DNA of 53,092 bases from Candidatus Pacearchaeota archaeon (GCA_016866995.1 VGKQ01000005.1:1-53092), one strand, 5' to 3'. Positions 39,030 through 53,092 are shown, counted from the first letter of the stretch. A program made the numbers and translations. Notes: a model not told the origin generated them from the sequence alone.

Positions 39030-40271
39030 ATGAAAAACTCAGACAAAAAACTTCTTGCTGTTCTGATAATATGCATTCTTCTCCGCCTTGTAATTTTCTC
39101 CTTCCAGACTCCTTTTAACAATGACAAACACTTTTTAGTTGTCAGTTATATTTTTCAGAATAATGCTCTTCCTTCCCCTTTCCAGTTTGAGGAGGCGCAA
39201 CATCCTCCTTTATATTATATTTTTGCCTCTTTTTTTCTTTTTTTTGGCAGTGCAAAAGCAGTGCAGTTTTTTTCTCTCATCCTTTCAATAGGAGCATTAA
39301 TTGTATTTTTTGTTTTAATAAAAAAGCTTGATATACCTCCAAAAAACAAATTATACTGCCTTTTGTTTGCAGGACTGCTTCCACAGATGATATTCTTCGG
39401 CAATTATATCTCAAATGATTCATTGTCAATTTTTCTTGGCTCTTTGATATTTTTTCAGTCTTACATGTTGATAAAGTCTCAGTCAATTATGAATCATGTG
39501 CTTCTTGCAGTATTTCTCGGGCTTGGAATGCTGACAAAAGCAACTTTTATTTTATTTCTTCCTGTTCTTTTTGTTTTGATTATCTTTATAAACTTCAAAA
39601 ATAATCAAAAAATACTTGTTCCATGCCTGATTTTTCTTGTCATCTCCCTGGCTCTGGGAAGCTATAAGTATGTTAACAATGAAATTTTATATAAAAATCC
39701 ATTTATAAATTATCAGGAGATAAATCCCGGGTGGTTTGCGCCCCACAGAGGCACATACTCTGGCTCAAGTTCATTTTATGATATTAATATTATTAAGCTT
39801 ATAGAAAATCCGTATGTTTCTCTTGAGACAAAACACTCCTATCCCTTGATGCTTTACGGAACTTTCTGGTACCAGTATATCAAAGACTCCAATTTCAACG
39901 GCAAATCTGCAATTTTCAGCTGGCTCGGCTCTCTGATTTATATTTTGGCAATAATTCCAACGATAATTATGATTATTGGATTTTTTAGAATTGCACGAAA
40001 TCCCAGCAAAAATATTTTTGAAACATTATGCCTCCTGCTTTTCCTAACAAATTTATTTTTTATTTTTTATGCTGGAATTAAATATGATGACTGGGCATTT
40101 TTTCAGTCAAGATACTTATTCCAGTCATTTTTTTCAATTTTAATATTTCTTAATTCAGGAATTAATTTTATAAAAAACAGCAAAATCAGAAAACTTGTTT
40201 ATATTTCTCTATGCTCTTTATTTTTTCTTTTTGTAATTTATTTTGCATATGGCATCTATAATCTTTTATAA
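39030..40271 (+). CDS. GT-C-like multi-TM protein inserted antisense between rpl15 and secY
   Basis: ND.H, EAQHPPLYY, ISNDSL, GMLTKAT, FQSRYL. Confidence 0.75.
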   Translation: MKNSDKKLLAVLIICILLRLVIFSFQTPFNNDKHFLVVSYIFQNNALPSPFQFEEAQHPPLYYIFASFFLFFGSAKAVQFFSLILSIGALIVFFVLIKKLDIPPKNKLYCLLFAGLLPQMIFFGNYISNDSLSIFLGSLIFFQSYMLIKSQSIMNHVLLAVFLGLGMLTKATFILFLPVLFVLIIFINFKNNQKILVPCLIFLVISLALGSYKYVNNEILYKNPFINYQEINPGWFAPHRGTYSGSSSFYDINIIKLIENPYVSLETKHSYPLMLYGTFWYQYIKDSNFNGKSAIFSWLGSLIYILAIIPTIIMIIGFFRIARNPSKNIFETLCLLLFLTNLFFIFYAGIKYDDWAFFQSRYLFQSFFSILIFLNSGINFIKNSKIRKLVYISLCSLFFLFVIYFAYGIYNLL

Positions 40272-40334
40272 TTGGCTCTTTAACAATTATAAACTAAATA
40301 ATATTTTTTCAAATTAGTAACATTAATAGTAGAA

Positions 40335-40796
40335 TTACTTTTTCTGTTTCTCTTTAATCTGTTTTTCTTGTTCTTTATCTTCAGATTTGTTTTGCTTATT
40401 TTCTGAAAGAACAATTTTGCCGCCGGCTTTCTCAATTTTCTCCCGGGCTGATTTTGATGCGGCTTTTGCCTTTACAACAACTTTTCTTTTTATCTCTCCT
40501 TCTCCAAGTATTTTGTAATTCTCAAGATTAATTTCTGTTTCTTTCATTTTTTCAATATCAGAAACATTAATTACATTATTCATTTTTCTTTTTGTTTTTC
40601 TGGATGTAAATCCCTGCTGCCCAAAATATGGATAAAGATGTTTTATAACATAGCTTTTTCTCTGGTCTGCCCTCTTTCCAGTTCCAGACATTCCTTTTCC
40701 TCCACGATTTCCACTTCCTTTATGCTTCTTCATAGCCCACCCGCAAGTTCTTGTTCCTCTTGCTCTTGAAAATTTTCTTCTTTTCTTCAGTTTCAT
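40335..40796 (-). CDS. rpl15: 50S ribosomal protein uL15
   Basis: RGTRTCGW...GSGNRGGKGMSG, KILGEG, EKIEKAGG. Confidence 0.96.
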   Translation of the reverse strand: MKLKKRRKFSRARGTRTCGWAMKKHKGSGNRGGKGMSGTGKRADQRKSYVIKHLYPYFGQQGFTSRKTKRKMNNVINVSDIEKMKETEINLENYKILGEGEIKRKVVVKAKAASKSAREKIEKAGGKIVLSENKQNKSEDKEQEKQIKEKQKK

Positions 40797-41209
40797 GTTT
40801 TATCTCCTATATTCATAATATACTCTTTTAATTTAGGATGAAATGATGTTGTAAAATATTTTTCAAGCTCATCTGGCTTAACCCATTTTATTTCCTTGAA
40901 TTTCTCCCTAGCTTTCTCTTTTCCTCCAATAACCTCGCACAAATAATAAATTGCCAGAAAATCTTTTTTTTCAGGATATATTTTTGAAAAAACAGCCCCC
41001 AAATTTTCAACTTCCAGTCCTGTCTTTATTTTAATTTCTTTTTTTAATACTTCCTCGGGCTCTTCTCCTGAATTAACATCCCCTCCTGGAAAGCACCAAG
41101 TTAATTTTTTAATATAAGCATCATTTTCTCTTCTTCCAATTAAAATTTTTCTTGTTTTTGTATCAAAAACTATTCCAAGAACAATAACTTTAAAGTTATT
41201 TTCTGCCAT
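40793..41209 (-). CDS. NUDIX hydrolase inserted between rpl30 and rpl15
   Basis: WCFPGG...GEEPEEVLKKEIKIKTGL (degenerate Nudix box). Confidence 0.85.
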   Translation of the reverse strand: MAENNFKVIVLGIVFDTKTRKILIGRRENDAYIKKLTWCFPGGDVNSGEEPEEVLKKEIKIKTGLEVENLGAVFSKIYPEKKDFLAIYYLCEVIGGKEKAREKFKEIKWVKPDELEKYFTTSFHPKLKEYIMNIGDKT

Positions 41210-41210
41210 T

Positions 41211-41633
41211 TTACAGCATCCTCCTTATTAACTCGCAAATTTTTTCCTGATTGTCTCCTAAAACTCCGCGAGGATAGTGCAATTTTGAGTTAATTCCGCC
41301 CCGGGGAGGATGAAGAGAGAAAAAAGGCTTTAATTTAAAATCTTCAAGCTTTTTTTCAGTCTTGCTTTCCAGCATCTCGCTGGCAATTTTCTCAGCATCA
41401 ATTTTAATTTTTTTCCCTGATTTTCCTCTCTTCTTTATCAATTCAATTAAAGTTTCCTTGTCAATCTTGCCATAAGCAACAAAATTTCTAACAACTTCAA
41501 GCATCCCAAGATTTTCTGGCTTTTCAAATAAAAGAACACAAGCAAACTTCTTTCTTAATCTCATCCTGAATAAAGTTTCCTGAACTTCTTTTGGTATTTC
41601 AACCATTCCTGATATTCTTATTACAGCTATCAT
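41211..41633 (-). CDS. rpl30: 50S ribosomal protein uL30 (archaeal long form)
   Basis: MIAVIRISG, TL..MRLRK, VAYG, F.LHPPRGG. Confidence 0.95.
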   Translation of the reverse strand: MIAVIRISGMVEIPKEVQETLFRMRLRKKFACVLLFEKPENLGMLEVVRNFVAYGKIDKETLIELIKKRGKSGKKIKIDAEKIASEMLESKTEKKLEDFKLKPFFSLHPPRGGINSKLHYPRGVLGDNQEKICELIRRML

Positions 41634-41986
41634 TTTATGCTCCTGAAACCATGCCCTTCCCCCCAAGGTATTCCTACTCCTCGGGGGTTATAATCTCTTT
41701 TTATTAATTCCTGCCTAAGTTTCTCTGCCTCTTCTCTGCTGTCAAACCTCGCTGTTAAAATTAATCCCCTTGGTATATAATGATATGCCAATAATCTCCC
41801 ATTATGCTGTTTAATTAATTCTGAAACTTCAGAATTCATAGGATTTGCCTCCTCATAGGAATTAAACAATGAAAGTGTTCCTACTGAGCCAACTACCAAG
41901 GTATCATCTATAAATTTCTTTATTCTGTGCATTAATGTGGCTTCTTTTCTTGGTTTTCCTTTTAGTAATACCCTATATTCAATCAT
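41630..41986 (-). CDS. Orphan hypothetical protein (118 aa) between rps5 and rpl30
   Basis: MIEYRVLLKG...; ATGA overlaps with both the rps5 stop and the rpl30 start. Confidence 0.7.
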   Translation of the reverse strand: MIEYRVLLKGKPRKEATLMHRIKKFIDDTLVVGSVGTLSLFNSYEEANPMNSEVSELIKQHNGRLLAYHYIPRGLILTARFDSREEAEKLRQELIKRDYNPRGVGIPWGEGHGFRSIK

Positions 41987-42765
41987 CTTGCTTTTTCTCC
42001 TGCTACTTTTATCTCCATTGTTTTTTTCAAAGCAGAAATGCATGCCTTTGCAAGATTTATTGTTGAGCGAGTTTGCCCGAATGTCTTTCCATAAATATCT
42101 TTTATTCCAGCCAATCTTAAAATTTTCTTGCACTCATCTCCTACTGCAAGCCCTGTTCCCTGAGGAGCAGGAATTAATATAATTTCACTGCTTCCGCACT
42201 TTCCCTCAACTTTAAATGGAATAGAATGCATCTCGTGGCAAGAACAATCAAAACTTCCGCATCCTCTTCTTATTTTAAATATATTCAGCTTGGCATTTCT
42301 GGCTGCCTTGCTTCTTGCAGGCAGTGTTTCTTTTGCCTTTCCCAATCCAATTCCTACATGCCCGTTCTCATCTCCGACAACAGCAAGGCATGCGAATGTA
42401 GGGACATTTCCTTCTGCTGTCTTTTTCTGAGTCTGCCTCCATACTCTTCTTTTTCCTCCCCCAAATTTCCCCTTAGCCTGCCCGATTGCAAGCAAATCTG
42501 AATTCAAATTCAATAGAGAATCAGCAATTTCAGGCTCAAGAATTTTGTATTTTTCAAGAATCTCATCAATGTTTTTTATTTTTTTCTCCTTGACAAGCTT
42601 TCCAATTTTTGTTTTAGGAACCCATTTGTCAAGATTTTCTTCTATTTTCTTTTTTTCAACCATTCTAAGCCTTTCTTTCTCCAGCTCTTCTGCAGACTTT
42701 TTCTCAATCTCCTTGATTTCAGGCGCAATTATTTCAACAATATTCTCTTCTTTTTCCTCATTCAT
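41983..42765 (-). CDS. rps5: 30S ribosomal protein uS5
   Basis: WVPKTKIG, AVVGDENGHVGIG, PAPQGTGL, LAGIKD. Confidence 0.96.
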   Translation of the reverse strand: MNEEKEENIVEIIAPEIKEIEKKSAEELEKERLRMVEKKKIEENLDKWVPKTKIGKLVKEKKIKNIDEILEKYKILEPEIADSLLNLNSDLLAIGQAKGKFGGGKRRVWRQTQKKTAEGNVPTFACLAVVGDENGHVGIGLGKAKETLPARSKAARNAKLNIFKIRRGCGSFDCSCHEMHSIPFKVEGKCGSSEIILIPAPQGTGLAVGDECKKILRLAGIKDIYGKTFGQTRSTINLAKACISALKKTMEIKVAGEKAR

Positions 42766-43246
42766 TTTTTATTTTCTCCTTTATTTTTTCAAAATTTATA
42801 TTCTTCTTTAGATGTCTTCCAGATATTCTGTTTTCATCAGGAAATTCAGCATTATTTGGAATATCTATTCCTGCGTCAATTAATCCTTTCAAGAAAGCGT
42901 AAATTTTTGATTTTTTTGTATTTCTAATCAATCCTATATCTAATGCTGCTTTTATTTTTCCCTCTTTATCAATAATTTTTCTTCCGAGAAGCAAGCCAGT
43001 CAAATAGCAGGCTGGCAGAGATTTCAAGCTTCCTGCTGCTTCTTTTGGCCATCCATATTTCAAAAGTATTCTTGATTCAATTCCTCTTGAAACAAAATCC
43101 TGCGCTTCCTTGCTCTTTACATACTGCCCTATAATATACTTGTTTGTTTTCCTGAATATAATTCTTCCTGCTTCTGATTTTAAAAGCCTCATTCTCTTCT
43201 TATAATCTGTTTTTCCTTCTATTCTTCTTCTTTTGTTTATTTTCAT
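42758..43246 (-). CDS. rpl18: 50S ribosomal protein uL18
   Basis: RRRIEGKTDYKKR, RKTNKYI, ACYLTG, LDIGL, DAGIDIP. Confidence 0.95.
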   Translation of the reverse strand: MKINKRRRIEGKTDYKKRMRLLKSEAGRIIFRKTNKYIIGQYVKSKEAQDFVSRGIESRILLKYGWPKEAAGSLKSLPACYLTGLLLGRKIIDKEGKIKAALDIGLIRNTKKSKIYAFLKGLIDAGIDIPNNAEFPDENRISGRHLKKNINFEKIKEKIKNE

Positions 43247-43290
43247 TTTATATTCCTGCAATTTAATTTTTGCACAAATTTTATTTTCAT
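43243..43290 (-). CDS. 15-aa mini-ORF MKIKFVQKLNCRNIK bridging rpl19e and rpl18
   Basis: ATGA overlaps at both ends; flanked by a 16-bp direct repeat (43236-43251, 43280-43295). Confidence 0.5.
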   Translation of the reverse strand: MKIKFVQKLNCRNIK

Positions 43291-43673
43291 TTTATTATCT
43301 CTTTCATATGAGCCTTGCTTTTAAACACTCTTGCTCTTATCTGCTTTCTTGTTTTTTCATATTTTTTCTTGTCAATTTTCTTTTGCAGTTTCAATTGCCT
43401 TGCGTACTCTCTCAATTTTCTTGTAATTTTTACATAATTTTGCTTCCTGCTTCTTATTTTCTTTTTTATTTTCCCAAAACTCCTTATTTTTCTCTTCTCA
43501 ATTTTTCTCTTCCCTTTATTCTCTTTAATGACTATTGCTCCTGAAGAAACAAGATCACGAATATCTTGCTTTGTTATTGCTTCTTTTATTTCATCAATCC
43601 TGACAAACGCTATCTTGTCTGTTCCAACATTAAATGTTCGTGCTGCCATTGATTTTTTATTTTTTAAGTTCAT
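43287..43673 (-). CDS. rpl19e: 50S ribosomal protein eL19
   Basis: K.MAA....VG, EAITKQDIR.L...GAI, FKSKAH. Confidence 0.92.
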   Translation of the reverse strand: MNLKNKKSMAARTFNVGTDKIAFVRIDEIKEAITKQDIRDLVSSGAIVIKENKGKRKIEKRKIRSFGKIKKKIRSRKQNYVKITRKLREYARQLKLQKKIDKKKYEKTRKQIRARVFKSKAHMKEIIK

Positions 43674-44007
43674 TTTCATTCCAGTCAATCATTTTTCTTT
43701 TTGCATTTTCAATTGTAAATCCTTTTGGATATCTTCCTTCAAGCTTTTTTATGTTTTCCTCCAGCACATTATCCATATCCCAATTGAAAAAATTGCATAT
43801 CATTGCAGCATACCATAATGTATCTCCTATATTTTCTTTTATTCCTGCTTCTTGATTATTGTCATGGGCAAATGTTTTTTTTATGCAGGAAGCAACATCC
43901 CCTGCTTCTCCTGTTATTCCAAGCCCCCATGTAAGTATTTCTTTTTCTCTAGTTTCAAATTTTTTTGCAGTTTTCCTGCATAATTCCTGATATTCTTTCA
44001 AGTTCAT
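43657..44007 (-). CDS. MazG-like all-alpha NTP pyrophosphatase
   Basis: EYQ, GLGITGEAGDV, KENIGDTLWY, NIKKL..RYP.GF. Confidence 0.9.
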   Translation of the reverse strand: MNLKEYQELCRKTAKKFETREKEILTWGLGITGEAGDVASCIKKTFAHDNNQEAGIKENIGDTLWYAAMICNFFNWDMDNVLEENIKKLEGRYPKGFTIENAKRKMIDWNENELKK

Positions 44008-44008
44008 T

Positions 44009-44359
44009 TTATAACCCTCTTCTACTTAACTTTAAATCTTGCTCATCATAATCTCTAGCCACTCCTTTTTCCCCTGGAGAAAAGCTCACAACATCAACAC
44101 CTATAACTCTTCCCTTTTTCATTTTTAAGACATAATCTATTTCAGTTATAGTTTCATTATTATCTCTTCTTAATGTTTGCACATGTTCTTTTCTTCTAAA
44201 CCGGTATCTTCCTATAACTAACTCTTCTGGGCTATTGCCATAGGGATATTTGGAATTGGCTATTCCTGAAATAATTGCTCCAACTACAAATTGTTCTAAT
44301 CTTGCTTCTTTTCTTAAGTCAATAACAGAATTTCTCGTTCTGTCTAATGTTGCTGTCAT
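44009..44359 (-). CDS. Orphan hypothetical protein (116 aa) after rpl32e
   Basis: ATGA overlap with rpl32e, TAAAATG junction with MazG. Confidence 0.72.
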   Translation of the reverse strand: MTATLDRTRNSVIDLRKEARLEQFVVGAIISGIANSKYPYGNSPEELVIGRYRFRRKEHVQTLRRDNNETITEIDYVLKMKKGRVIGVDVVSFSPGEKGVARDYDEQDLKLSRRGL

Positions 44360-44697
44360 TTTTTCCCTCGTAAATTTAATATTTTTACTCCAAGCTCAGA
44401 TGCCTTTTTCTCAATTTCAATTCTTTTCTTTTTCCCGATTTTTCTTACAATTACTTCTTCTCCCTTTTCTGCTTGAAGAAGTTCTTTCAAGTTTGAAACC
44501 AATCTTATCTCCTTGCTTGGAGATTTCATCCCAATTTCCGGGCGAGAAGGATATCCCTTTCTTCTTTCTCTCATTTTTGCATGCCTGCCTCTTGGCTTTC
44601 TCCATTTCTGTTTCTTTTTTCTTCCCCATCCCAGCCTGGAATACTTGTCCCAGTTTCTTCTTATGAATTTTTTTCTTTTCTTATTTTTATTTTCCAT
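44356..44697 (-). CDS. rpl32e: 50S ribosomal protein eL32
   Basis: FIRR, KWRKPRG, P.IG, IGKKKR..I...A. Confidence 0.93.
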   Translation of the reverse strand: MENKNKKRKKFIRRNWDKYSRLGWGRKKKQKWRKPRGRHAKMRERRKGYPSRPEIGMKSPSKEIRLVSNLKELLQAEKGEEVIVRKIGKKKRIEIEKKASELGVKILNLRGKK

Positions 44698-44699
44698 TT

Positions 44700-45236
44700 T
44701 TAATATTCAGGTTTCTCAATAATATATATGCCGTCCTGAAAAACCCTCCTGTCCCTGTTATTTATCTTGCAGGAATTTTCTATGTTTGCAGCTGTCTGCC
44801 CGGCTGCCTCATTATTTGAGCTTTCAACAATTATATTTTCCTTGTCAACCTTAACTTCTGCTCCTGAAACTATTTTTGCAACTCTTGGCTTCACCTCTCC
44901 TAAAAAATTCTTGATAATAACTTCATGTTTTGACTTATCTACACTAACATTCATTGGAAAATGGACAGCGCATATTCTTAATTTGTATGAAAAATTTTTT
45001 TCAAATCCAAGAATAATATTTTTTATATGTGCTTTTATTGTCTTGATTAATTTTTTTTCCTTCTTTGTTGCTTTTTTTCCTCCGAGTATAATTAAATTGT
45101 CTTCTTTCTTTGCATCAAAGCCAGAATACTCTCTTTCAGCTTCTTTTCCATTTTTCTTGATTTTTATTATTCCATTTGCTATTTCAACTTCAATTCCTGC
45201 AGGAATTTCAATTTTCTCTATAATTTCTTTTCTCAT
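44700..45236 (-). CDS. rpl6: 50S ribosomal protein uL6
   Basis: HFPM, KNFLGE..PR, AGQTAANIE, DRRVFQDGIYI. Confidence 0.96.
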   Translation of the reverse strand: MRKEIIEKIEIPAGIEVEIANGIIKIKKNGKEAEREYSGFDAKKEDNLIILGGKKATKKEKKLIKTIKAHIKNIILGFEKNFSYKLRICAVHFPMNVSVDKSKHEVIIKNFLGEVKPRVAKIVSGAEVKVDKENIIVESSNNEAAGQTAANIENSCKINNRDRRVFQDGIYIIEKPEY

Positions 45237-45610
45237 TTTTCACCTCCCTGCCTATGCCTATTATAATCCCCATCATCTTTCATGATAAAATCTAACTCTG
45301 CAATCTGTCTATCTACACGTAATAATGTCCCCCTGACTGCTTTTTCTAAAGCTTCAGGGCTCATTCTGTCCAATTGTTCTTCCAGCAGAACTCTTAAATG
45401 CCCAAGTGCCTGGCCATATGCCATATAACCTGCAAATTGCCTATCTGACATTTCTCCTTGGATAGAACCAGAGCGAATACAGCAATCTCCAATAACTCCT
45501 CTTACAGCACGCATATTTCTGTTTTTAATCCCGGGAATTATCAGAGTTTCATATTTATTCACAAACTCTCCCATAACTTCGCCAGGATTCATTAATACTG
45601 CAGTTTCCAT
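45233..45610 (-). CDS. Orphan hypothetical protein (125 aa) between rps8 and rpl6
   Basis: TAAAATG junction after rps8; ends in GGAGGTGAAAAATGA (SD plus ATGA overlap with rpl6). Confidence 0.72.
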   Translation of the reverse strand: METAVLMNPGEVMGEFVNKYETLIIPGIKNRNMRAVRGVIGDCCIRSGSIQGEMSDRQFAGYMAYGQALGHLRVLLEEQLDRMSPEALEKAVRGTLLRVDRQIAELDFIMKDDGDYNRHRQGGEK

Positions 45611-45611
45611 T

Positions 45612-45983
45612 TTAGTAAAAATAAGCAATCAGGCTTCCTCCTATGTTTTTCTTCAAGCATTCTTCATGAGTCAGTAATCCCTTGCTTGTTGTTATAATCA
45701 AAATTCCAAAATCTCTTGCAGGAAGGTATCTTCTGATATATTTTTCAATTTCCTTGCATGAAATATCAAATCTTGGTTTTATTGCCTTGCACTCGTTTAA
45801 GTTAAATTTTATCTCAAGCTCTCTTCCTTTTTTCTTGAACTCAGCAATATATCCGTGTTTTTTTGCAACTTCCAGTACATTCAGAAGAAGATTTGAGTGC
45901 CTTTTTACAATTATCTCACTCTTTCTTGCTCTCTTTGCATTCATTATCTCATTCAATGTGTCTGCTATGATATCGTGGCTCAT
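45612..45983 (-). CDS. rps8: 30S ribosomal protein uS8
   Basis: D.IAD.L..I.NA, IKPRF, YLPARDFG..I.TTSKG, GG.LIAYFY. Confidence 0.96.
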   Translation of the reverse strand: MSHDIIADTLNEIMNAKRARKSEIIVKRHSNLLLNVLEVAKKHGYIAEFKKKGRELEIKFNLNECKAIKPRFDISCKEIEKYIRRYLPARDFGILIITTSKGLLTHEECLKKNIGGSLIAYFY

Positions 45984-46249
45984 GTTACTACCTGCAACTT
46001 TTCAGGGCCTTTACCCTCCGGCCTTTTAAAGTTTCTTAAACTTTCATTTATTTTTGTCATTTCTGCAACTGAATCATAACCTCCATAAACTTCTGCTGCA
46101 TTTTTGAATCCCTGAATTAAATAATCTAATGCTAATTTATCTCTTTCTCTTACTCCCCTTGGCCCTCTAACTCTCCAAGTGCAAACATCCAATGCACTAT
46201 CAATTCCTTTTCCAAGATATCTCATCATTGTTATTAATTTGTTTATCAT
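45980..46249 (-). CDS. Orphan hypothetical protein (89 aa) between rps14 and rps8
   Basis: ORF ends with an ATGA overlap on the rps8 start. Confidence 0.65.
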   Translation of the reverse strand: MINKLITMMRYLGKGIDSALDVCTWRVRGPRGVRERDKLALDYLIQGFKNAAEVYGGYDSVAEMTKINESLRNFKRPEGKGPEKLQVVT

Positions 46250-46252
46250 TTT

Positions 46253-46309
46253 TTATGAATACTTTTTATTTTTATTTCCTAAAATCTTATAATTTACTTT
46301 TATCATCAT
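46253..46309 (-). CDS. 18-aa mini-ORF MMIKVNYKILGNKNKKYS after rps14
   Basis: Starts at the TAAAATG junction with rps14; stops 3 nt before the next ATG. Confidence 0.4.
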   Translation of the reverse strand: MMIKVNYKILGNKNKKYS

Positions 46310-46310
46310 T

Positions 46311-46541
46311 TTAGCTGTATTTCTTAAACCCAATTTCTTCAGCAATGTCCCTGAAGCACTGCCTGCATAAATTTAATCCATAGCTTGAAATATGCGCTCC
46401 AAACCTTCCGCATCTCTCGCATTTTCTCGCAGCCATTCCAAATTTTCTTTCCTTGGGCTTGTTGTGCTTTAGGAACTTCTGCCATATAATTGGCTTGCTT
46501 TTAAGCTGATTCATAAATTTTTTCCAGTCACTTGCTGTCAT
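46311..46541 (-). CDS. rps14: 30S ribosomal protein uS14 (Zn-binding, N-terminally extended)
   Basis: CERCG...YGLNLCRQCFR..A..IGFKKY. Confidence 0.96.
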   Translation of the reverse strand: MTASDWKKFMNQLKSKPIIWQKFLKHNKPKERKFGMAARKCERCGRFGAHISSYGLNLCRQCFRDIAEEIGFKKYS

Positions 46542-47064
46542 CTTCTTCTATTTTTTTCTCCTTTGTTGTTATTTTAGTTTCATAATTTTTTTTCATATAC
46601 TCAATAATTTCCTCTCTTGAAACATCCTGCCTCTTCGGAATTCCTGATTTTTTTATTTTTCTTCTTTTAACTCTTGCTCCTGTCCTTGTAAAATCAATTG
46701 TAACATTCAAACCGAGAATTCCAATATCTCTCTGGTATTCTGTTCCCGGAATTTCAATATACTCGTGAATGCCGAATGAAAAATGATTTTTTTCTATCTG
46801 GCTTTCTTTTATTTCATTGTTTATTGCAAGAAGAAGTTTTTTCAGAAGTTGCTGAAAATTTTTTCTTATTGTTACTTTGCAGCCGACTTCCAATCCCGGC
46901 CTTACATTAAGCGAAGGAATTCTTTTTTTGCTTTTTATCTTTATTGGCTGCCTTGCTGATATTAATTTGAGAAGCCGCACCCCCTTGTCCAATTTATCCC
47001 CGCTTCCTCCAGCACTTAATACAACTTTCTCAATTCTCACTTCTCTCATCTTATTTTGTTTCAT
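46528..47064 (-). CDS. rpl5: 50S ribosomal protein uL5
   Basis: N.MREVRIEKVV, GCKVTIR, FSFGIHEYIEIPG..Y...IGILG. Confidence 0.96.
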   Translation of the reverse strand: MKQNKMREVRIEKVVLSAGGSGDKLDKGVRLLKLISARQPIKIKSKKRIPSLNVRPGLEVGCKVTIRKNFQQLLKKLLLAINNEIKESQIEKNHFSFGIHEYIEIPGTEYQRDIGILGLNVTIDFTRTGARVKRRKIKKSGIPKRQDVSREEIIEYMKKNYETKITTKEKKIEEDDSK

Positions 47065-47663
47065 TTTACTGCCATTATGTCATTTAGTTTTAAATTTATC
47101 TTTCCTTCTTTAAGCAAAATGCTTGCGTTTTTTCCTTCAATCTTTTCAACTTCTCCTTCTTCGCCCTTATGCTTTCCGTTAATAATTATAATCTTTGCTC
47201 CTTCTTTTAGCTCTATTTTTTTTATTTTTTCTCCCATTACAACCGAGTCGCCTATTTTAAATTTCTCAGCAGAAATAAAATTTCTTCCATCATTCAAATT
47301 AATCTGTGTTTTCTTTCCAGAAAGAATTTTCTTTCCTATTACTTTCAGGATTTTATCAGAATTTCTTGTTTCTTCAAGTCCGAATTTCTTGTTTTTTAAT
47401 ATAACCTTAAACTTCTCATCTCCAAGCTCAAGAACATCAAAAAGAGAAAGCACAAACTTTTCATCTTTTATAATCTTTCCATTTACCTTGGCTTTTTTGT
47501 CATGAATTATTTCCTTTACTTCTTTTTTGCTTTTTGCCTTTTTCATTACATCTCTGATTAATATCAGCACAGGAATTCCATTTTTTCTGCTTTTGATTAA
47601 AAATTTTGTTCCCTTTCTTGGAATTGGCCAGTTCTTAGGCGCTTGGTTTCTTTTCAGGTGCAT
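47061..47663 (-). CDS. rps4e: 30S ribosomal protein eS4
   Basis: MHLKR..APK.WPI.RK, VNG, QINL.DGRN, GKH.G. Confidence 0.94.
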   Translation of the reverse strand: MHLKRNQAPKNWPIPRKGTKFLIKSRKNGIPVLILIRDVMKKAKSKKEVKEIIHDKKAKVNGKIIKDEKFVLSLFDVLELGDEKFKVILKNKKFGLEETRNSDKILKVIGKKILSGKKTQINLNDGRNFISAEKFKIGDSVVMGEKIKKIELKEGAKIIIINGKHKGEEGEVEKIEGKNASILLKEGKINLKLNDIMAVK

Positions 47664-48033
47664 TTTGCTTTTCCTTGTTTTGTTTTATTTTTCTTTCAAC
47701 AAGCTCAATAATTTGTATTTTGCTTGGATGAAAATAGACATTTACCTTTGTCCCGTCTTTCTTCTGCCTTTGTATCCCCTCAATTGCTATTCTCGTTCTC
47801 TTCAAGTCCACTTTGCTTATTTTTCCTTTTTTCTTCCTGAACTTTCCTCTCATTATGATTACGCTGTCTCCTTTTCTTGCTTCAATATTTCTTCCATGTT
47901 TCTTTCTAAGCTCTTTGCTTAAATTTGCTGACAAAAATTTATACTTAATGTGCAGCGGGGCATTTTCAAAATATTTTCTCTGCTTCCGAGTTTGTCTGCT
48001 TGATTTCCATGCTGTGCTGAATTTTTGTTTCAT
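47635..48033 (-). CDS. rpl24: 50S ribosomal protein uL24
   Basis: SRQ.RKQRK...NAPLH, RKGD.V.IMRG, HPSK. Confidence 0.95.
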   Translation of the reverse strand: MKQKFSTAWKSSRQTRKQRKYFENAPLHIKYKFLSANLSKELRKKHGRNIEARKGDSVIIMRGKFRKKKGKISKVDLKRTRIAIEGIQRQKKDGTKVNVYFHPSKIQIIELVERKIKQNKEKQNAPEKKPSA

Positions 48034-48034
48034 T

Positions 48035-48334
48035 TTATGCTGCAAATAACTCTCTTATTGTTGATTTTCTATTTAATTGTGTTAATCTTACTGCAATTTG
48101 TGTCACTTCTTTTGAACTTTTTTGCGATAAAACTTTAGCAAGAAGCAATAATTCCTGATATTTTGGAGGCATGTATGGAAAATTTCTCATATCATATTCT
48201 TTTTTTTCTTCTATTGCTCTTGCAACATCAACGCAATACCACATAAAATTTCTTTGATTATTATAGTCCAGTCTTGCAAATTCTTTCCCCCCTGTTGCAA
48301 CACATTCTCTTATAAGAAAAGGTCTTTCTATCAT
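48035..48334 (-). CDS. Orphan hypothetical protein (99 aa) between rpl14 and rpl24
   Basis: TAAAATG junctions at both ends. Confidence 0.72.
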   Translation of the reverse strand: MIERPFLIRECVATGGKEFARLDYNNQRNFMWYCVDVARAIEEKKEYDMRNFPYMPPKYQELLLLAKVLSQKSSKEVTQIAVRLTQLNRKSTIRELFAA

Positions 48335-48335
48335 T

Positions 48336-48737
48336 TTAAACTATAAATTGCGCAAGTTTCGCAACCTCCTTCCATCTTTCCTGAACTTCCCTTGGTATTG
48401 CTCCCTTAACCTGTGTTCCTTTTGGATTTCCTTTCTCATCTTTCAATAATACTGCTGCATTATCTGTAAATGCAATTCTCTCCCCAGTCTTTCTCAAAAA
48501 GGGCTTTTTCTGCCTTATTAAAACTGCATCAAAAACCTTTCCTTTCATTTCAGGGTTTCCTGCCCTTACTGAAACTTTAATCCAGTCTCCAACCTTGGCT
48601 GTAATATATCTTCCTTTTCTCGATTTTCCATGCTTCACTCCGACGATTTTTACAATCCTTGCCCCAGAATTGTCAGAAGCAAGTATATGGCTTCCAATAT
48701 TCAATCCCCTTGTCATTCTTGCTGATACTGCTTTCAT
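48336..48737 (-). CDS. rpl14: 50S ribosomal protein uL14
   Basis: DNSGAR, VGD, AVLIRQKK, F.DNAAV, G.PKGT...G.I.REV. Confidence 0.96.
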   Translation of the reverse strand: MKAVSARMTRGLNIGSHILASDNSGARIVKIVGVKHGKSRKGRYITAKVGDWIKVSVRAGNPEMKGKVFDAVLIRQKKPFLRKTGERIAFTDNAAVLLKDEKGNPKGTQVKGAIPREVQERWKEVAKLAQFIV

Positions 48738-49063
48738 TTTTCTTCCTCCTTATTTTGAGATTTTTTTCTTAAAACTTCCACAAGCACAAAATGTATAATC
48801 TTGCTTAATGGACGGCATTCTCTTACTTGCACATAATCTCCAACTTCAACATTTTCCATGCATTTTGAAACTCGAGCATGAAGGCGTGTTTTCTTTTTCA
48901 TATATCTTTCATATTTTTTTATAAATAATGTTCTTTCAAATTCAATGGCAATTCTCTTTGGAAATTTTCTGATTACATTTCCTGCGAAAACTCTGCCTCT
49001 GGCTGCAAGTTTGCCGTGTATCGGGCACTGTTCATCATCACATTTTTCAATTTTTTCTTTCAT
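48734..49063 (-). CDS. rps17: 30S ribosomal protein uS17
   Basis: CDD..CP.HG.L..RG, KYERY, ECRPLSK..HF. Confidence 0.96.
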   Translation of the reverse strand: MKEKIEKCDDEQCPIHGKLAARGRVFAGNVIRKFPKRIAIEFERTLFIKKYERYMKKKTRLHARVSKCMENVEVGDYVQVRECRPLSKIIHFVLVEVLRKKSQNKEEEK

Positions 49064-49074
49064 TTTATATTTTT

Positions 49075-49374
49075 TTATTCAGCTATTGAACTTTCTGGAA
49101 ATCCTAATTCAATTAATAAGGGCTTTATTCTCCTTCTATGATCTCCCTGAAGCTCAATTATGCTATTTTTTACTGTTCCTCCACAAGCAAGCTTCTCTTT
49201 AAGAGTTTTTGCTATTTCTTTTATATTAATGCCTTCTCCAATCCCCGTAACAAGCGTAGTTATTTTTCCAAAAGCTCTTTTCACTGTTTCTATTTTTATT
49301 TTCTGCTCGCTTTTTGCAATTTCCTCGCAAACACATGCCTGCTTTGGCAGTCCGCATTTTGGGCATATTTCCAT
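49075..49374 (-). CDS. sui1: Translation initiation factor aIF1/SUI1
   Basis: CPKCGLP...CVCE, FGK..T, LK.KLACGGT, IELQGDH. Confidence 0.95.
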   Translation of the reverse strand: MEICPKCGLPKQACVCEEIAKSEQKIKIETVKRAFGKITTLVTGIGEGINIKEIAKTLKEKLACGGTVKNSIIELQGDHRRRIKPLLIELGFPESSIAE

Positions 49375-49565
49375 TATTTACCCTCCCTGTTTAATTTAAT
49401 ATTATTTGCAGTTAAAATTCTTGCAATTGATTTTTTAATTTCTTTGGCTTTAATCTTGCTGGCTTTGTTTGCAGTCACATTTTTCTTTATTAATTCGAGT
49501 TTAAGCTCTTTCAATTTTTCTTCTCTTTCTTCTTTGCTCAATTTTTTTATATCTTTATACTTCAT
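49374..49565 (-). CDS. rpl29: 50S ribosomal protein uL29
   Basis: KL.ELK.EL, IKKSIARILT; operon position. Confidence 0.92.
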   Translation of the reverse strand: MKYKDIKKLSKEEREEKLKELKLELIKKNVTANKASKIKAKEIKKSIARILTANNIKLNREGK

Positions 49566-50272
49566 CTTTCTTCCTCTGTATTTAACTCAGACTTGTTTTG
49601 CTTCTTTCCTAAAAGAAGTTTCTTTCTTGTTTTCTTTGGCTTTTCTTCTGTAACAGGCATTTTTAATTGTTTTCTCAGTTCATTATTAACTTCTATCTGG
49701 TCATGAATTTTTGCATCAGGAGGCAGTATCGCTACTTTTACTCCAATAACTCCAAGCATTGTTTTTGCTATTGCTTTTGCCCTGTTTACAATCTTTGCTG
49801 TATCACCTGTTTTTTTCAGATATCCAGAAGCAAACCTCCAGGCTTTTGCTCTCTCGCTTGGGAGCTTTCCACTAAGCCTTATTTCAGCTCCTAAAGCCCC
49901 TGCCCTCATTATTTTGTCAAGCATTTTATATGCTATTATCTTGAACTTTAAGCTTCCAAGCTTTTCAAGCATTAAGGCTATGTCATCTGCAATTGTTTGT
50001 GCGTCAAATTCTGGCTTTATTATTTCCTGAATTTCTATATTTGGATTTTCAAGCTTAAATTTTCTCTTTAATATTCTTGTCAGTTCAATAATTTTTTCTC
50101 CCTTTCTTCCTATAACATATCCAGGAGTGTTTGTTGAAATTATTATTTTCTCGCCCACAGGGGTATATTCTATTCCAACCGTGCTTATCTTTCCCTTTCC
50201 CAAATTTCCCTTAATAAATTCTTTTATATTTAATTCATCTTTCTTTAATTGAACAAATTTTTTCTCTTCCAT
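49562..50272 (-). CDS. rps3: 30S ribosomal protein uS3
   Basis: TPVG, PGYVIGRKG, AGALGAEI.LSGKLPSERA, GYLKK.G, GVIGVKV. Confidence 0.96.
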   Translation of the reverse strand: MEEKKFVQLKKDELNIKEFIKGNLGKGKISTVGIEYTPVGEKIIISTNTPGYVIGRKGEKIIELTRILKRKFKLENPNIEIQEIIKPEFDAQTIADDIALMLEKLGSLKFKIIAYKMLDKIMRAGALGAEIRLSGKLPSERAKAWRFASGYLKKTGDTAKIVNRAKAIAKTMLGVIGVKVAILPPDAKIHDQIEVNNELRKQLKMPVTEEKPKKTRKKLLLGKKQNKSELNTEEER

Positions 50273-50273
50273 T

Positions 50274-50837
50274 TTAAATTTGAGCCTCCTGCTTATTTTC
50301 TTGTTTTTTCTCACTAACTTTTCTCTCTTTTGCTTCAAGGTAAACATTTGTCCTCTTGAATCTCTCTCTTCCACCTCTTCTGAACGGGCGGGAGGCATCA
50401 TTTGCAATCGCAAGAGTTATTATTGGATTCTCAATTCCATTCACTTGGGAATTTGCCTGCAAGTTTTTCAGCAGATTAATAAATACCTTGCTTGCATTTA
50501 CAGGATATCTTCCACTCATTATTTTTCCATGCCGATGAGGAATTTCTCCCCTCATTTTTAATGGTTTTTTCATTTTCATTATCAATTCTAATTCAGGAAT
50601 CATTTCTTCTGGATTTTTTCCTCTGATTAAGTCGCATATAGCCATTGAATGCTTCTTTGAGATAGGCAAATCTTTTCCATTGACAACAGCTTTTTCTTTT
50701 TTCACAATTTCTTGTTTCTTTTCTTCTTTTTTTGTTTTCTCTTCTGATTTTATCTCTGATTTTTCTTCAACTTTTGGAGTTTCTTTGTTAATTGGCTCTT
50801 CAATTTTTTTCTCTTCAGTTTTTGCTTCTTTTTTCAT
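50274..50837 (-). CDS. rpl22: 50S ribosomal protein uL22 with charged N-terminal extension
   Basis: PISKKH...IC..IRGK, PHR, GRYP, KRT.V. Confidence 0.94.
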   Translation of the reverse strand: MKKEAKTEEKKIEEPINKETPKVEEKSEIKSEEKTKKEEKKQEIVKKEKAVVNGKDLPISKKHSMAICDLIRGKNPEEMIPELELIMKMKKPLKMRGEIPHRHGKIMSGRYPVNASKVFINLLKNLQANSQVNGIENPIITLAIANDASRPFRRGGRERFKRTNVYLEAKERKVSEKKQENKQEAQI

Positions 50838-50838
50838 T

Positions 50839-51228
50839 TTATTTCACAGACAAAGCTGCAGACGATTTAGTTGCGCCTATTCCTGGAGCTCCGTGCTCAA
50901 CTTTCTTTCTTGTCACGGAAAATTCACCTAATCTATGCCCCAGCATTTCTGGAATAATTTTTATTGAGACAAATTCTTTTCCATTATGGATTCCAATTGT
51001 ATAATTTATCATTCCAGGAACAATTACAAGATTTCTCAGGTGTGTTTTTATCGGCTTGCTTTTCCCCGAATTTTTCCTGCACTTTTCCACAAATTTTTCA
51101 ATAACATCAAAATGCCGAAGAACAAATCTTCTTGAATCAGCCCCAACTAATCTTGCAAATTCTCTTGTATCCAAAGCTTTTAACTCGCTAATATTTTTCC
51201 CGCGATATTTAAATTCTCGAGCTGCCAT
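50839..51228 (-). CDS. rps19: 30S ribosomal protein uS19
   Basis: F.YRGK, KTHLR, HNGKEF, MLGHRLGEF..TR..V.HG.PGIGAT. Confidence 0.96.
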   Translation of the reverse strand: MAAREFKYRGKNISELKALDTREFARLVGADSRRFVLRHFDVIEKFVEKCRKNSGKSKPIKTHLRNLVIVPGMINYTIGIHNGKEFVSIKIIPEMLGHRLGEFSVTRKKVEHGAPGIGATKSSAALSVK

Positions 51229-51229
51229 T

Positions 51230-51541
51230 TTATGCTGCTACTCCAAAAGGTAATTTAATATCTGAATAACTTTTCACTTCTAAAATTCCATAACCATATT
51301 CTTCTCCAATTTCACTTGCATGAGCTATTAAATGAGAAACTCTGCTTAAATGTGTGCCCCCAACAATCCAAAAATTATGAGTATCCCCCCTTCCTCCTTT
51401 TCCTATTGGATTTAATGAAATCATTCTTACTGCATAAACTGTTCCTGGCATTTCCTCTAATTTCAAAACAATGTCCCTGCTTAAACAACACGAATTTCTC
51501 ATGCTAAATTCTAATCTTAATTTTTTTCTTCTAATTAACAT
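51230..51541 (-). CDS. Orphan hypothetical protein (103 aa) between rpl2 and rps19
   Basis: MLIRRKKLRLEF...; TAAAATG junctions at both ends. Confidence 0.72.
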   Translation of the reverse strand: MLIRRKKLRLEFSMRNSCCLSRDIVLKLEEMPGTVYAVRMISLNPIGKGGRGDTHNFWIVGGTHLSRVSHLIAHASEIGEEYGYGILEVKSYSDIKLPFGVAA

Positions 51542-51542
51542 T

Positions 51543-52235
51543 TTATTTCTTCCTCCTTCCTGTTCTTTTTGGATGAAGATGTCCAACTTTAGCTCCGGGG
51601 GGAGCATTATTCTTTGCAATCTTGCTTTTTATTCTTTTTCCTCTTCCAGAGCCAAAAGGATGGTCAACTACATTCATTTTTACAGCAGAAGTTCTTGGCC
51701 ATAACTTGTTTTTTGCCTTCATCATATGCCATTTTTTCCCTGCTTTTATTATGGGTTTCTCAAGCCTTCCCTGTCCTGCAACAATTCCAATTGTAGCCCT
51801 GCATTTCTCATCAAACCATATTTCCTTTTTGCTTGGCATCATTACTGCAACTCTTCCAGGCATTTTCTTAGTAATTGTAGCAGACAATCCAGAAGCTCTT
51901 ACTAATTTTCCGCCGTCATTTAATTTTGCTTCAATATTATATATGCTTGTTCCTGGAGCAATATCTTTCAATTGCATAATGTTTCCGTTTTCTTGCTTTC
52001 CTGTTTCAATCTCCTGCCCCACAATTGCCCCGTCAAATGCAGGATTATAAAAAATCTTGTTTCCAATTTGAATTTTTGCAAGAGGAGCAGAATGCGCTGG
52101 CGAGTTTATAAGCTCAAGAATTTTTCCTTTTCCTTCTATAATAGGATATCCAATTCTAAATTTGTAAGCCTGCTTTCTGACTCTGTAAGTCAATGAGCCA
52201 TGCCCTCTTGCCTGTTGTATTATTCTTTTTCCCAT
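51543..52235 (-). CDS. rpl2: 50S ribosomal protein uL2
   Basis: MGKRI..QARG.G, GG..VRASG, KAG, MN.VDHPFG.G, PPGAKVG. Confidence 0.97.
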   Translation of the reverse strand: MGKRIIQQARGHGSLTYRVRKQAYKFRIGYPIIEGKGKILELINSPAHSAPLAKIQIGNKIFYNPAFDGAIVGQEIETGKQENGNIMQLKDIAPGTSIYNIEAKLNDGGKLVRASGLSATITKKMPGRVAVMMPSKKEIWFDEKCRATIGIVAGQGRLEKPIIKAGKKWHMMKAKNKLWPRTSAVKMNVVDHPFGSGRGKRIKSKIAKNNAPPGAKVGHLHPKRTGRRKK

Positions 52236-52236
52236 T

Positions 52237-52614
52237 TTATGCCACCGATTTCCTCCCCGCTTTTATTAATTTTCTCTCATAATCTATGAATGTTTTAGTC
52301 ATTTCCTCTCTCCTAATATCAATACAACCCGCTCTTTCAATATCAACAACAGTCAAATATCCTTCTTTTGTTGGAGCAAGATTTTTTAGAACAGTATTTA
52401 ATATCATAATCCTATTTCCATCTAATGGATTTCTATAAGCAAAACTGATTAGGTCTGGCTGTCCTCTTTGGGGCAGTACTCCATCGTGCACCGAGACAAG
52501 CCTAAATACAGGAGTGTCTAAAACTACTACATCATCCTTAACTAAACTAGCAATATCTTCGTTACTTCTTACTGGTTTAAATTCAACTCTCTCTAAATTT
52601 TGAAATATCTTCAT
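52237..52614 (-). CDS. Orphan hypothetical protein (125 aa) between rpl23 and rpl2
   Basis: TAAGATG and TAAAATG junctions. Confidence 0.72.
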   Translation of the reverse strand: MKIFQNLERVEFKPVRSNEDIASLVKDDVVVLDTPVFRLVSVHDGVLPQRGQPDLISFAYRNPLDGNRIMILNTVLKNLAPTKEGYLTVVDIERAGCIDIRREEMTKTFIDYERKLIKAGRKSVA

Positions 52615-52615
52615 C

Positions 52616-52858
52616 TTATATCATCCCAAGTTTAGTTGCAACATCAATTGCAGGATTTTTCTTATCCAGTTTAATATAAACATATTTTTCGTTTTTTCTT
52701 ATCAAAGTTCGAATTTTTTCAACATTAACTTTGAAAGTTTCCTCAAATTCTTTTTTTATCTCAGATTTTCTTGCCTTTCTCTCAACTCTGAAAATTAGAG
52801 TATTCTCTATTTCAATTAATTTCACTGCTTTCTCTGACGTGACTGGTTTTAGTATCAT
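52616..52858 (-). CDS. rpl23: 50S ribosomal protein uL23
   Basis: P..SEKA...IE.EN.L.F.V, A.DVATKLG. Confidence 0.95.
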   Translation of the reverse strand: MILKPVTSEKAVKLIEIENTLIFRVERKARKSEIKKEFEETFKVNVEKIRTLIRKNEKYVYIKLDKKNPAIDVATKLGMI

Positions 52859-52859
52859 C

Positions 52860-52955
52860 TTATATATTGAACATCAAACTGCAGTCTGATGACTGCACCA
52901 AAGGCAAATTTTCCCGCAGGAAAATTTGGTTTGATGTTGTAAATTTAATTATCAT
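52860..52955 (-). CDS. 31-aa mini-ORF MIIKFTTSNQIFLRENLPLVQSSDCSLMFNI coupled to rpl23 and spanning the hairpin element
   Basis: Open frame ending TAA-G-ATG at the rpl23 start. Confidence 0.35.
   Translation of the reverse strand: MIIKFTTSNQIFLRENLPLVQSSDCSLMFNI
52870..52938. other. Multi-stem structured element between rpl4 and rpl23
   Basis: AACATCAAAC/GTTTGATGTT outer stem enclosing TGCAGTC-tgat-GACTGCA and CAAATTTTCC-cgca-GGAAAATTTG. Confidence 0.75.
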
Positions 52956-53030
52956 TTTTTATATTTTAAATTTAATTATCATTTTTTATATTTTAAATTT
53001 AATTATCATTTTTTATATTTTAAATTTAAT
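52941..53030. repeat. 27-bp tandem repeat, 3.3 copies
   Basis: AAATTTAATTATCATTTTTTATATTTT at 52941, 52968 and 52995, plus a partial copy. Confidence 0.92.
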
Positions 53031-53031
53031 A

Positions 53032-53092
53032 TTATTTTCTAACTTCTCCTAACTCTTTAATTGCATTTTCAGTATAGCAAGTTAATCTTCCT
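53032..53092 (-). CDS. rpl4: 3' end of 50S ribosomal protein uL4 (partial)
   Basis: GRLTCYTENAIKELGEVRK* matches the archaeal uL4 C-terminal GRLT.wte.A motif; upstream of rpl23. Confidence 0.85.
   Translation of the reverse strand, partial: GRLTCYTENAIKELGEVRK

Follow-up and report, generated by a model that had tools for sequence, protein, structure and literature searches.

Does the S10-spc cluster of ribosomal protein genes, a textbook case of frozen gene order and a phylogenetic marker block for uncultured archaea, admit other genes, and if so, by what route? The question is raised by a stretch of 53,092 nucleotides (nt) from Candidatus Pacearchaeota archaeon (GCA_016866995.1 VGKQ01000005.1:1-53092), here called the window, in which nine genes are inserted between the genes of an S10-spc operon: seven orphan open reading frames (ORFs; O1 to O7), a MazG gene, and a NUDIX gene. 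The answer that we favor, and consider probable, is that the operon is a tolerated flux zone, where small accessory genes are inserted, deleted, and replaced at stop-start junctions and where selection keeps those that are coupled and co-oriented.

Nine inserted genes in a ribosomal operon of canonical order

On the minus strand, from 52858 to 40335, the ORF listing gives an archaeal S10-spc cluster in the canonical L23-to-L15 order, with SUI1 after L29. Together with the inserts and two of three mini-ORFs, it reads L23-O1-L2-O2-S19-L22-S3-L29-SUI1-S17-L14-O3-L24-S4e-L5-S14-[18-aa]-O4-S8 and, after S8, O5-L6-L32e-O6-MazG-L19e-[15-aa]-L18-S5-O7-L30-NUDIX-L15 (aa, amino acids). An earlier note on this DNA, made from the sequence alone, had described an intact S10-spc order with seven orphans of 89 to 125 aa between its genes; the ORF listing and junction map confirm this, and the map and Pfam scores likewise confirm MazG, NUDIX, and mini-ORFs of 15, 18, and 31 aa as further inserts. 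The features are as follows.

40335..52858, minus strand: S10-spc backbone (uL23, uL2, uS19, uL22, uS3, uL29, SUI1/aIF1, uS17, uL14, uL24, eS4, uL5, uS14, uS8, uL6, eL32, eL19, uL18, uS5, uL30, uL15); ORFs with orthologues in 20 relatives by tblastn and family hidden Markov models (HMMs)
52860..52955, minus strand: 31-aa mini-ORF, ending one base before L23
52237..52614, minus strand: O1, 125-aa orphan at L23/L2; no Pfam family
51230..51541, minus strand: O2, 103-aa orphan at L2/S19; starts at the ATG one base past the L2 stop
48035..48334, minus strand: O3, 99-aa orphan at L14/L24; no Pfam family
46253..46309, minus strand: 18-aa mini-ORF bridging S14 and O4; starts one base past the S14 stop
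45980..46249, minus strand: O4, 89-aa orphan at S14/S8; no Pfam family
45233..45610, minus strand: O5, 125-aa orphan at S8/L6; no Pfam family, member of a small phylum-restricted family
44009..44359, minus strand: O6, 116-aa orphan at L32e/MazG; no Pfam family
43657..44007, minus strand: MazG-like nucleotide pyrophosphohydrolase, 116 aa, at O6/L19e; PF03819, 7.8e-10
43243..43290, minus strand: 15-aa mini-ORF at L19e/L18; ATGA at its start, TAA-A-ATG at its end
41630..41986, minus strand: O7, 118-aa orphan at S5/L30; no Pfam family at E<=0.001
40793..41209, minus strand: NUDIX-domain protein, 138 aa, at L30/L15; PF00293, 9.7e-16

These sizes assume that O2, O5, and O7 start at the ATG beside the upstream stop; the longest ORFs start earlier, at TTG or GTG within the upstream gene. 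None of the seven orphans matched a Pfam family at E<=0.001.

The inserts are co-oriented with the operon and leave no room for a promoter of their own. Fifteen of the 17 junctions that touch an insert are tight, nine at +1 (TAA-N-ATG) and six at -4 (ATGA); the exceptions are S14/O4, where 61 nt are bridged by the 18-aa mini-ORF, and MazG/L19e, at -17. The tight stop-start joining that the earlier note had singled out is therefore real at these 15 junctions but is not specific to inserts, being the rule at native junctions too: among 754 co-oriented ORF pairs genome-wide, 90 lie at -4 and 56 at +1. Because tight coupling is the genome's general operon grammar, it does not mark inserts. The same note's reading of a Shine-Dalgarno (SD)-like tract for the downstream ribosomal gene in an orphan's last codons also holds, with GGAGGTGA at 45240-45247 in the last codons of O5, just upstream of L6.

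The orphan frames are not chance ORFs. The analytic probability of each staying open by chance is 1.2e-5 to 2.0e-4, and between 0 and 4 of 20,000 shuffles kept an orphan frame open. This openness far beyond chance bears on the suspicion of an assembly or binning artifact or of spurious ORF calling, an explanation to which we give a negligible probability. The source, a genome assembled from metagenome data, is in 70 contigs, and 234 bases of the window lie upstream of L23. However, when we checked the contigs of four lake-water metagenome runs, separate public runs matched the window with 0 differences over 43241-50708 (7,497 nt, run X2, which may be the source sample) and over 48558-52862 (4,305 nt, run X4, which is not marked so), and 51 further genomes of the family show the same pattern. 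The misassembly that the earlier note had named as a refuting outcome was thus not seen.

Inserts differ between close relatives

The nearest relative of the window genome in the tree, here L023, lies at a distance of 0.18 (next nearest, 0.55), and its ribosomal proteins are 75 to 93% identical to those of the window. The borders of O3, O5, and O6 are the exact points at which DNA homology between the two operons breaks off and picks up again. Where the window has O3 (300 nt), L023 has 9 nt; where it has O5 (364 nt), 39 nt; and where it has O6 (340 nt), 108 nt with a 32-aa ORF. O4 with its spacer (319 nt) corresponds to 220 nt in L023 that hold an unrelated 74-aa ORF, and MazG is kept. The 74-aa ORF starts at the same place as the window's 18-aa mini-ORF, which may be the scar of an earlier insert.

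The lake-water contigs point to further variation. Their joints, called at 85% likeness with short sides of 30 to 51 nt, skip several inserts. A joint 44009->44374 with 33 other letters occurs in three runs, at a depth of 7.8 against 10.5 for the path through O6 (X4). Read in frame, the 33-letter allele would give an intact L32e whose Lys-rich tail ends in ATGA on the MazG start, and it would be a clean coupled allele without O6. Joints over O4 (45986->46318) and over O3 (48010->48403) were found in two runs each. In three runs, 52862->53040 with 11 other letters skips the 31-aa mini-ORF and a tandem repeat, making this a variable stretch.

Inserts are a trait of the whole family

To place the window among its relatives, we compared its operon with those of 93 other genomes of its family of small-genome, DPANN-type archaea (one per genus as drawn), 26 sister-family genomes, and ten metagenome contigs. 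Ribosomal proteins were labeled with HMMs built for this analysis, and an insert was any unlabeled same-strand ORF. Between L23 and L15, at least one insert was found in 52 of the 94 family operons (46 of the 80 near-complete ones), with a mean of 1.9 per operon and a maximum of 12; the window's nine are the second highest number. Over the wider stretch from L3 to SecY, inserts occur in 76 of 94. The sister families have them in 6 of 26 operons, five of these with a single insert, an Rpp29-like ORF at SUI1/S17 aside. Inserts are thus a family-wide trait and not peculiar to the window genome.

The family inserts resemble those of the window in anatomy. In the 93 other operons, same-strand ORFs fill 144 of the 157 widened junctions (150 nt or more) and cover a median of 100% of the gap; six of the remaining gaps have an antisense ORF only and seven have no ORF. 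For 90% of these inserts, the start lies between -4 and +10 nt from the preceding stop, and their median length is 98 aa (range, 47 to 204). From L3/L4 to L15/SecY, 20 of the 21 surveyed junctions are occupied. The most frequent sites are L30/L15 (31% of operons), L15/SecY (26%), L4/L23 (25%), and L14/L24 (23%); S3/L29, L6/L32e, L32e/L19e, and L18/S5 have inserts in 2% of operons each, SUI1/S17 in 1%, and L29/SUI1 in 0%. As the earlier note had held, the junctions that are filled in the window are direct in most of the relatives surveyed. The pattern of ancient fixed genes, with the orphans conserved at the same junctions throughout the lineage and with host-like codons, was looked for and is not what we found.

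A second loaded operon of the family, with ten or more inserts, is that of G220 (L143 1600-14800). It includes a relative of O5, a member of a cluster of 155- to 160-aa inserts at L19e/L18, and MazG at the window's junction; a 186-aa insert at L30/L15 looks metallo-beta-lactamase-like by eye.

Codon usage and amino acid composition of the inserts

The orphans were described in the earlier note as rich in Arg, Gly, and Val and as favoring TTA for Leu, and codon counts in the window bear this out. TTA accounts for 48 of their 74 Leu codons and CTT for 9; the TTA share is 0.27 in ribosomal proteins and 0.31 in 562 long host ORFs (binomial P = 2.8e-9). It is at least 0.5 in each of the seven orphans and reaches 10 of 11 Leu codons in O2, where small host ORFs average 0.34 to 0.37. 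The orphans exceed the host in Arg (9.5% of residues; host, 4.1%), Gly (7.9%; host, 6.2%), and Val (7.7%; host, 5.3%), and Lys is lowered. The Leu codons of MazG and NUDIX are host-like. In 36 of 47 family genomes, inserts use TTA for a larger share of Leu codons than the ribosomal proteins beside them do, and G+C content at third codon positions is mostly lower; Arg richness is not general among family inserts. We label this codon use foreign-like or weakly selected.

What the inserts encode

Most inserts have no relatives among the others. Even by iterated profile search, 124 of 181 are singletons, and the largest cluster has 11 members. About 10 known-type families are represented among the 146 inserts scanned, with Pfam domains of the HD (three), DUF5680, GNAT, 5'-nucleotidase, nucleoside deoxyribosyltransferase, HAD, NUDIX, and helix-turn-helix (HTH) types; searches of the orphans and the 146 inserts with PHROGs and PADLOC added nothing. 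Several candidate identities were rejected. As diverged or duplicated ribosomal proteins, unnamed inserts gave a best match of E = 0.0026 (21 family HMMs, --max, E<=5), and only 66 of 779 weak insert-to-ribosomal-protein matches were to the neighboring gene. Free-standing homing endonucleases were not found, with no GIY-YIG, HNH, LAGLIDADG, or PD-(D/E)xK family in the 7 orphans or 146 inserts by Pfam. An early impression of a C-terminal motif common to many inserts was not upheld by profile clustering.

Among the orphans, O1 and O7 each found only themselves among 5.8e9 clusters, O1 was not found in 40 relatives, and neither O1 nor O2 had a usable ESM Atlas match; no paralogue of O1 to O7 was found elsewhere in their own genome. 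O5 belongs to a small phylum-restricted family with a predicted four-helix-bundle fold. A profile search returned 14 proteins, one of them O5 itself from a TTG start and one named "Nanoarchaeota archaeon," and the AlphaFold2 model from a 15-row alignment is a four-helix bundle with a predicted local distance difference test score (pLDDT) of 88.5 and a predicted template modeling score of 0.82. A Foldseek comparison with the PDB gave no match at E<1; the matches at E>1 were all to generic helical bundles. For O6, the 1.84e9 representatives searched include a single true relative, a protein of 117 aa with 52 to 53% identity over the full length; a match to an 1,844-aa WD40 repeat protein was spurious, the common part being only a short VSFSP-like stretch. 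A DUF4143 match of O6 was below threshold (E = 0.071; 13.3 bits against a cutoff of 28.1). Judged by the predicted fold of the O5 family and by the conservation between O6 and its relative, at least some of the inserts are real proteins.

The two inserts with recognizable domains are better defined. MazG matches PF03819 at 39.3 bits (gathering cutoff, 22), is 91% identical in L023, and is 73% identical at the same junction in G220, a value that exceeds those of most ribosomal proteins of that pair. The NUDIX protein matches PF00293 at 58.4 bits (gathering cutoff, 21.1). Compared by eye with the consensus Nudix box GX5EX7REUXEEXGU, it has K for R and lacks the paired glutamates, which makes hydrolase activity doubtful. 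Six weaker NUDIX paralogues lie elsewhere in the genome.

Around MazG in L023, a similar element of about 40 to 60 nt with a short hairpin-like inverted repeat is present on both sides (L023 12060-12123 and 12520-12577). It sits just before the next start codon, and the window has nothing like it.

Most orphans might also have no function as proteins, their frames being kept open only so that ribosomes reach the next essential gene. The extreme sequence turnover would fit, as would the AT bias of third positions and Leu codons that mutation pressure predicts, the mini-ORFs of 15, 18, and 31 aa that bridge gaps by the same stop-start grammar, and the low confidence of the models of O1 (ESM Atlas pLDDT of 0.46) and O6 (AlphaFold2 pLDDT of 33, a failed model). 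However, the window orphans are rich in Arg, Gly, and Val and not in the Lys, Asn, and Ile expected of AT drift; the O5 family folds confidently; O6 keeps its identity with its relative over the full length; and clean insert-free alleles exist, so that deletion is possible. We therefore hold this explanation to be very unlikely.

How the inserts could come, be expressed, and go

In the account that we favor, small genes would repeatedly enter, leave, and swap at the junctions between ribosomal protein genes. Since the operon is essential and translationally coupled, only insertions that restore coupling would persist: those in the same orientation, with no terminator, with TAA-N-ATG or ATGA restored, and with an SD-like tract in the last codons. 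Such a selection filter would make the survivors look like cassettes in the absence of cassette machinery. With transcription by read-through and translation by coupling, a promoterless newcomer could be expressed at once. The flanking conserved ribosomal genes could act as homology arms through which alleles with and without an insert are exchanged between related strains, and mini-ORFs may be scars across which ribosomes are carried on to the gene that follows. The inserts themselves would be mixed. A minority are putative enzymes of nucleotide house-cleaning or salvage (MazG, NUDIX, HD, 5'-nucleotidase, and nucleoside deoxyribosyltransferase), and most would be fast-evolving orphans, which we take to be strain-specific accessory proteins rather than parts of the ribosome.

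Were this account true, several consequences would follow. Strain-variable orphans in more than half the genomes of a large family would mean that operons that are both essential and coupled can be hot spots of gene flux, with a bearing on how new genes are expressed in tiny genomes with few promoters. The inserts would be easily located, highly expressed, lineage-specific proteins and thus candidates for roles in symbiont-host or virus conflict in unculturable organisms. Furthermore, binning and strain-typing pipelines that count on a contiguous ribosomal block should be ready for presence/absence bubbles in it.

Older genes and loss as an alternative to gain

A number of observations in this section and the next weigh against the favored account. 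It is the spacing of the genes that suggests read-through and coupling, no RNA run being listed among the runs that contain the stretch, and individual orphans may reflect loss rather than gain. Since the metagenome joints were called at 85% likeness with sides of only 30 to 51 nt, their source may be co-occurring relatives and not strains of one species. A search of IMG/VR, by a method that detects close relatives only, found no close relative of O1 to O7 and hence no donor. At S8/L6, the spacer of L023 retains the first bases after the S8 stop and the SD-like end; it looks like a deletion scar, and so O5 was probably lost there rather than gained in the window. The O5 family occupies S8/L6 in six genera scattered over a clade of 72 of the 121 tips, so that O5 may be an old gene with many losses and not a recent gain. 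One cluster at L23/L2 is common to the family and a sister family.

These last points, from the L023 spacer onward, are what would be expected if the inserts were old lineage-specific genes, fixed at their junctions, diverging past recognition and differentially lost, with little or no gain. Relatives of O5 are 22 to 29% identical where ribosomal proteins keep 55 to 60%, and other clusters are also position specific, four at L30/L15 and three at S14/S8. However, most inserts are singletons even by profile search, and single families occupy differing junctions. Clusters span L22/S3 and L23/L2 or L19e/L18 and L30/L15, and the O5 family, present in 9 of 401 family genomes, also occurs at L24/S4e in one genus and outside any ribosomal protein context in two. 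The congener L023 has a nonhomologous ORF at S14/S8, synonymous codon use is deviant, and the operons of the sister families are mostly empty. Old genes with loss alone are therefore an unlikely explanation of the whole pattern, and the favored account leaves room for loss as well as gain.

A search for a capture mechanism

The earlier note had proposed a cassette-like acquisition system, and this proposal found no support. Over 40300-53092, there are no repeats or hairpins at insert borders, only low-identity AT-rich matches elsewhere. No attC recombination site was found at the 3' ends of the inserts, which have no ends in common. Neither the window nor contig C5 has an integrase; PF00589 was found only at C2:35017-35493 and C4:43343-43819, two Xer-like tyrosine recombinases that are both away from the operon. 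A TnpB-like domain and a reverse transcriptase were not found in the genome, which is 85.6% complete.

Two observations stand apart from these negatives. The first is a 10-mer, GCATAAAATG, that O1, O2, O3, and O7, four of the seven orphans, have in common at their 3' junctions. Its genome-wide copies number eight, of which six end a small unknown ORF directly before a conserved gene; these six lie at 52242, 51235, 48040, and 41640 in the window and at C2:42416 and C7:1871 elsewhere in its genome (G000), the two outside the window belonging to ORFs of 91 aa, before rpoD, and of 78 aa, before a 541-aa gene. Such recurrence is not what selection acting purely as a filter predicts. The second is a set of tail copies. 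In G144 (L041 14600-15370), the L30/L15 junction is filled by three inserts in tandem (75, 94, and 71 aa), and the first two end with a near copy of the last 30 to 47 nt of L30 (47 nt at 79%) that includes the SD-like tract and the stop; the first codons of these inserts are also alike. In G164, one insert after S17 copies the S17 tail. As a rule, duplication of the upstream 3' tail was rejected, with a mean score equal to the null and 2 of 164 inserts above the null's 99th percentile.

Both would fit a dedicated, undescribed capture of promoterless ORFs at stop-start junctions, integron-like but lacking attC, in which crossover takes place at a junction motif of the GCATAAAATG type together with the copied 3' tail of the gene upstream, and ORFs move between genomes. 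The enrichment of inserts in one family (in 52 of its 94 operons, compared with 6 of 26 in sister families) and the exactness of the insertion frames would suit such a process, and the tail copies in G144 and G164 are the leftover expected of Campbell-type integration through the tail. On the other side stand the lack of border repeats and of an integrase, TnpB-like domain, or reverse transcriptase, as well as the rarity of tail duplication, which is clear in only 2 to 3 of 164 inserts. The junction motif is ordinary gene grammar, TAAAATG occurring 418 times in the genome, and the Ala-stop ending of O1, O2, and O3 is found in only 9 of 155 family inserts. We thus judge a dedicated capture system to be quite unlikely. 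Were it to exist, which we doubt to the same degree, the ribosomal superoperon would serve DPANN archaea as a dispersed counterpart of the integron, a platform from which strain-specific effectors are expressed.

Comparison with known systems

Integron gene cassettes, which attC and the integrase define, are small genes in one orientation that lack promoters and depend on one upstream for their expression. The inserts are likewise small, co-oriented, mostly of unassigned function, compositionally deviant, and quickly turned over. However, they have no attC-type imperfect inverted repeat and no integron integrase beside them, their junctions are 1 nt apart or overlapping, and they occur one at a time among essential genes instead of in a stack at a single attI. 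Their expression would be by translational coupling, to judge from the junctions.

Phage morons are extra genes between genes that are adjacent in related phages, and classical ones carry their own promoter and terminator. The inserts also lie exactly between genes that are adjacent in relatives, differ in composition from their surroundings, and are present or absent between close relatives. In contrast to morons, they leave no room for their own promoter and terminator, with 15 of 17 junctions at +1 or -4 nt, and their setting is a cellular ribosomal operon rather than a phage genome. Of the systems compared, morons and integron cassettes are the nearest in the way they work, but the inserts lack the defining features of either.

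Archaeal ribosomal protein clusters also have conserved nonribosomal passengers, such as SUI1/aIF1, RNase P component 1, SecY, and adenylate kinase. These, too, are nonribosomal genes embedded co-directionally in S10-spc; the window has SUI1, and the sister families have the Rpp29-like ORF. However, such passengers are kept over phyla at one junction, whereas the inserts vary between genera, between congeners, and probably between strains. In the portion of PMC10833476 covered here, Hsp20 is placed in the ribosomal protein cluster of some Asgard genomes.

The ORFans and "dark matter islands" of archaea, as presented in the covered parts of PMC2718499 and PMC4158269, are short, AT biased, narrowly distributed, and fast evolving, with a presumed mobile origin. 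The inserts match them in the first four respects. The difference is one of setting: in those parts of the two sources, the genes form clusters or islands and integrated elements, whereas the inserts are single genes in the most conserved operon and show no sign of an integrative element. The pattern is not described in the covered portions of the literature, including a 2023 survey of archaeal ribosomal protein clusters and a 2026 Nanobdellota preprint, a coverage that does not extend to supplementary operon maps.

Inserts in the alpha operon and other observations

The insert trait is not confined to the S10-spc operon. The alpha operon, on the minus strand of contig C2 of the window genome (G000, L122 3300-13700), has the order L21e-94aa-RpoF-DUF655-S13-S4-S11-91aa-RpoD-(HTH regulator, 71aa)-L18e-L13-S9. 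Between RpoD and L18e lie a 322-aa AsnC-type regulator and a 71-aa ORF, and six unknown ORFs of 65 to 107 aa stand in a row upstream of L21e.

In L023, the S10-spc operon is broken between SUI1 and S17 (L023 1-7900). A mobile element upstream of S17 was considered and rejected; ordinary host genes lie there instead, namely, a tRNase Z-like metallo-beta-lactamase, an LSm protein, and a 1,202-aa surface protein with CBM96 and Ig-like domains.

At the L15 end, 76 of the 94 family operons have a 471-aa ORF after L15, taken as SecY from its length and position only. In the window, L15 is followed by a convergent 413-aa ORF (39030-40271, plus strand) that by eye resembles a multipass membrane protein. 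At the other end, near the contig end, a 27-nt unit is repeated in tandem 3.7 times (97% match) at 52940-53038, just upstream of the 31-aa mini-ORF and of L23; the unit resembles the S14/O4 spacer at 65 to 71%.

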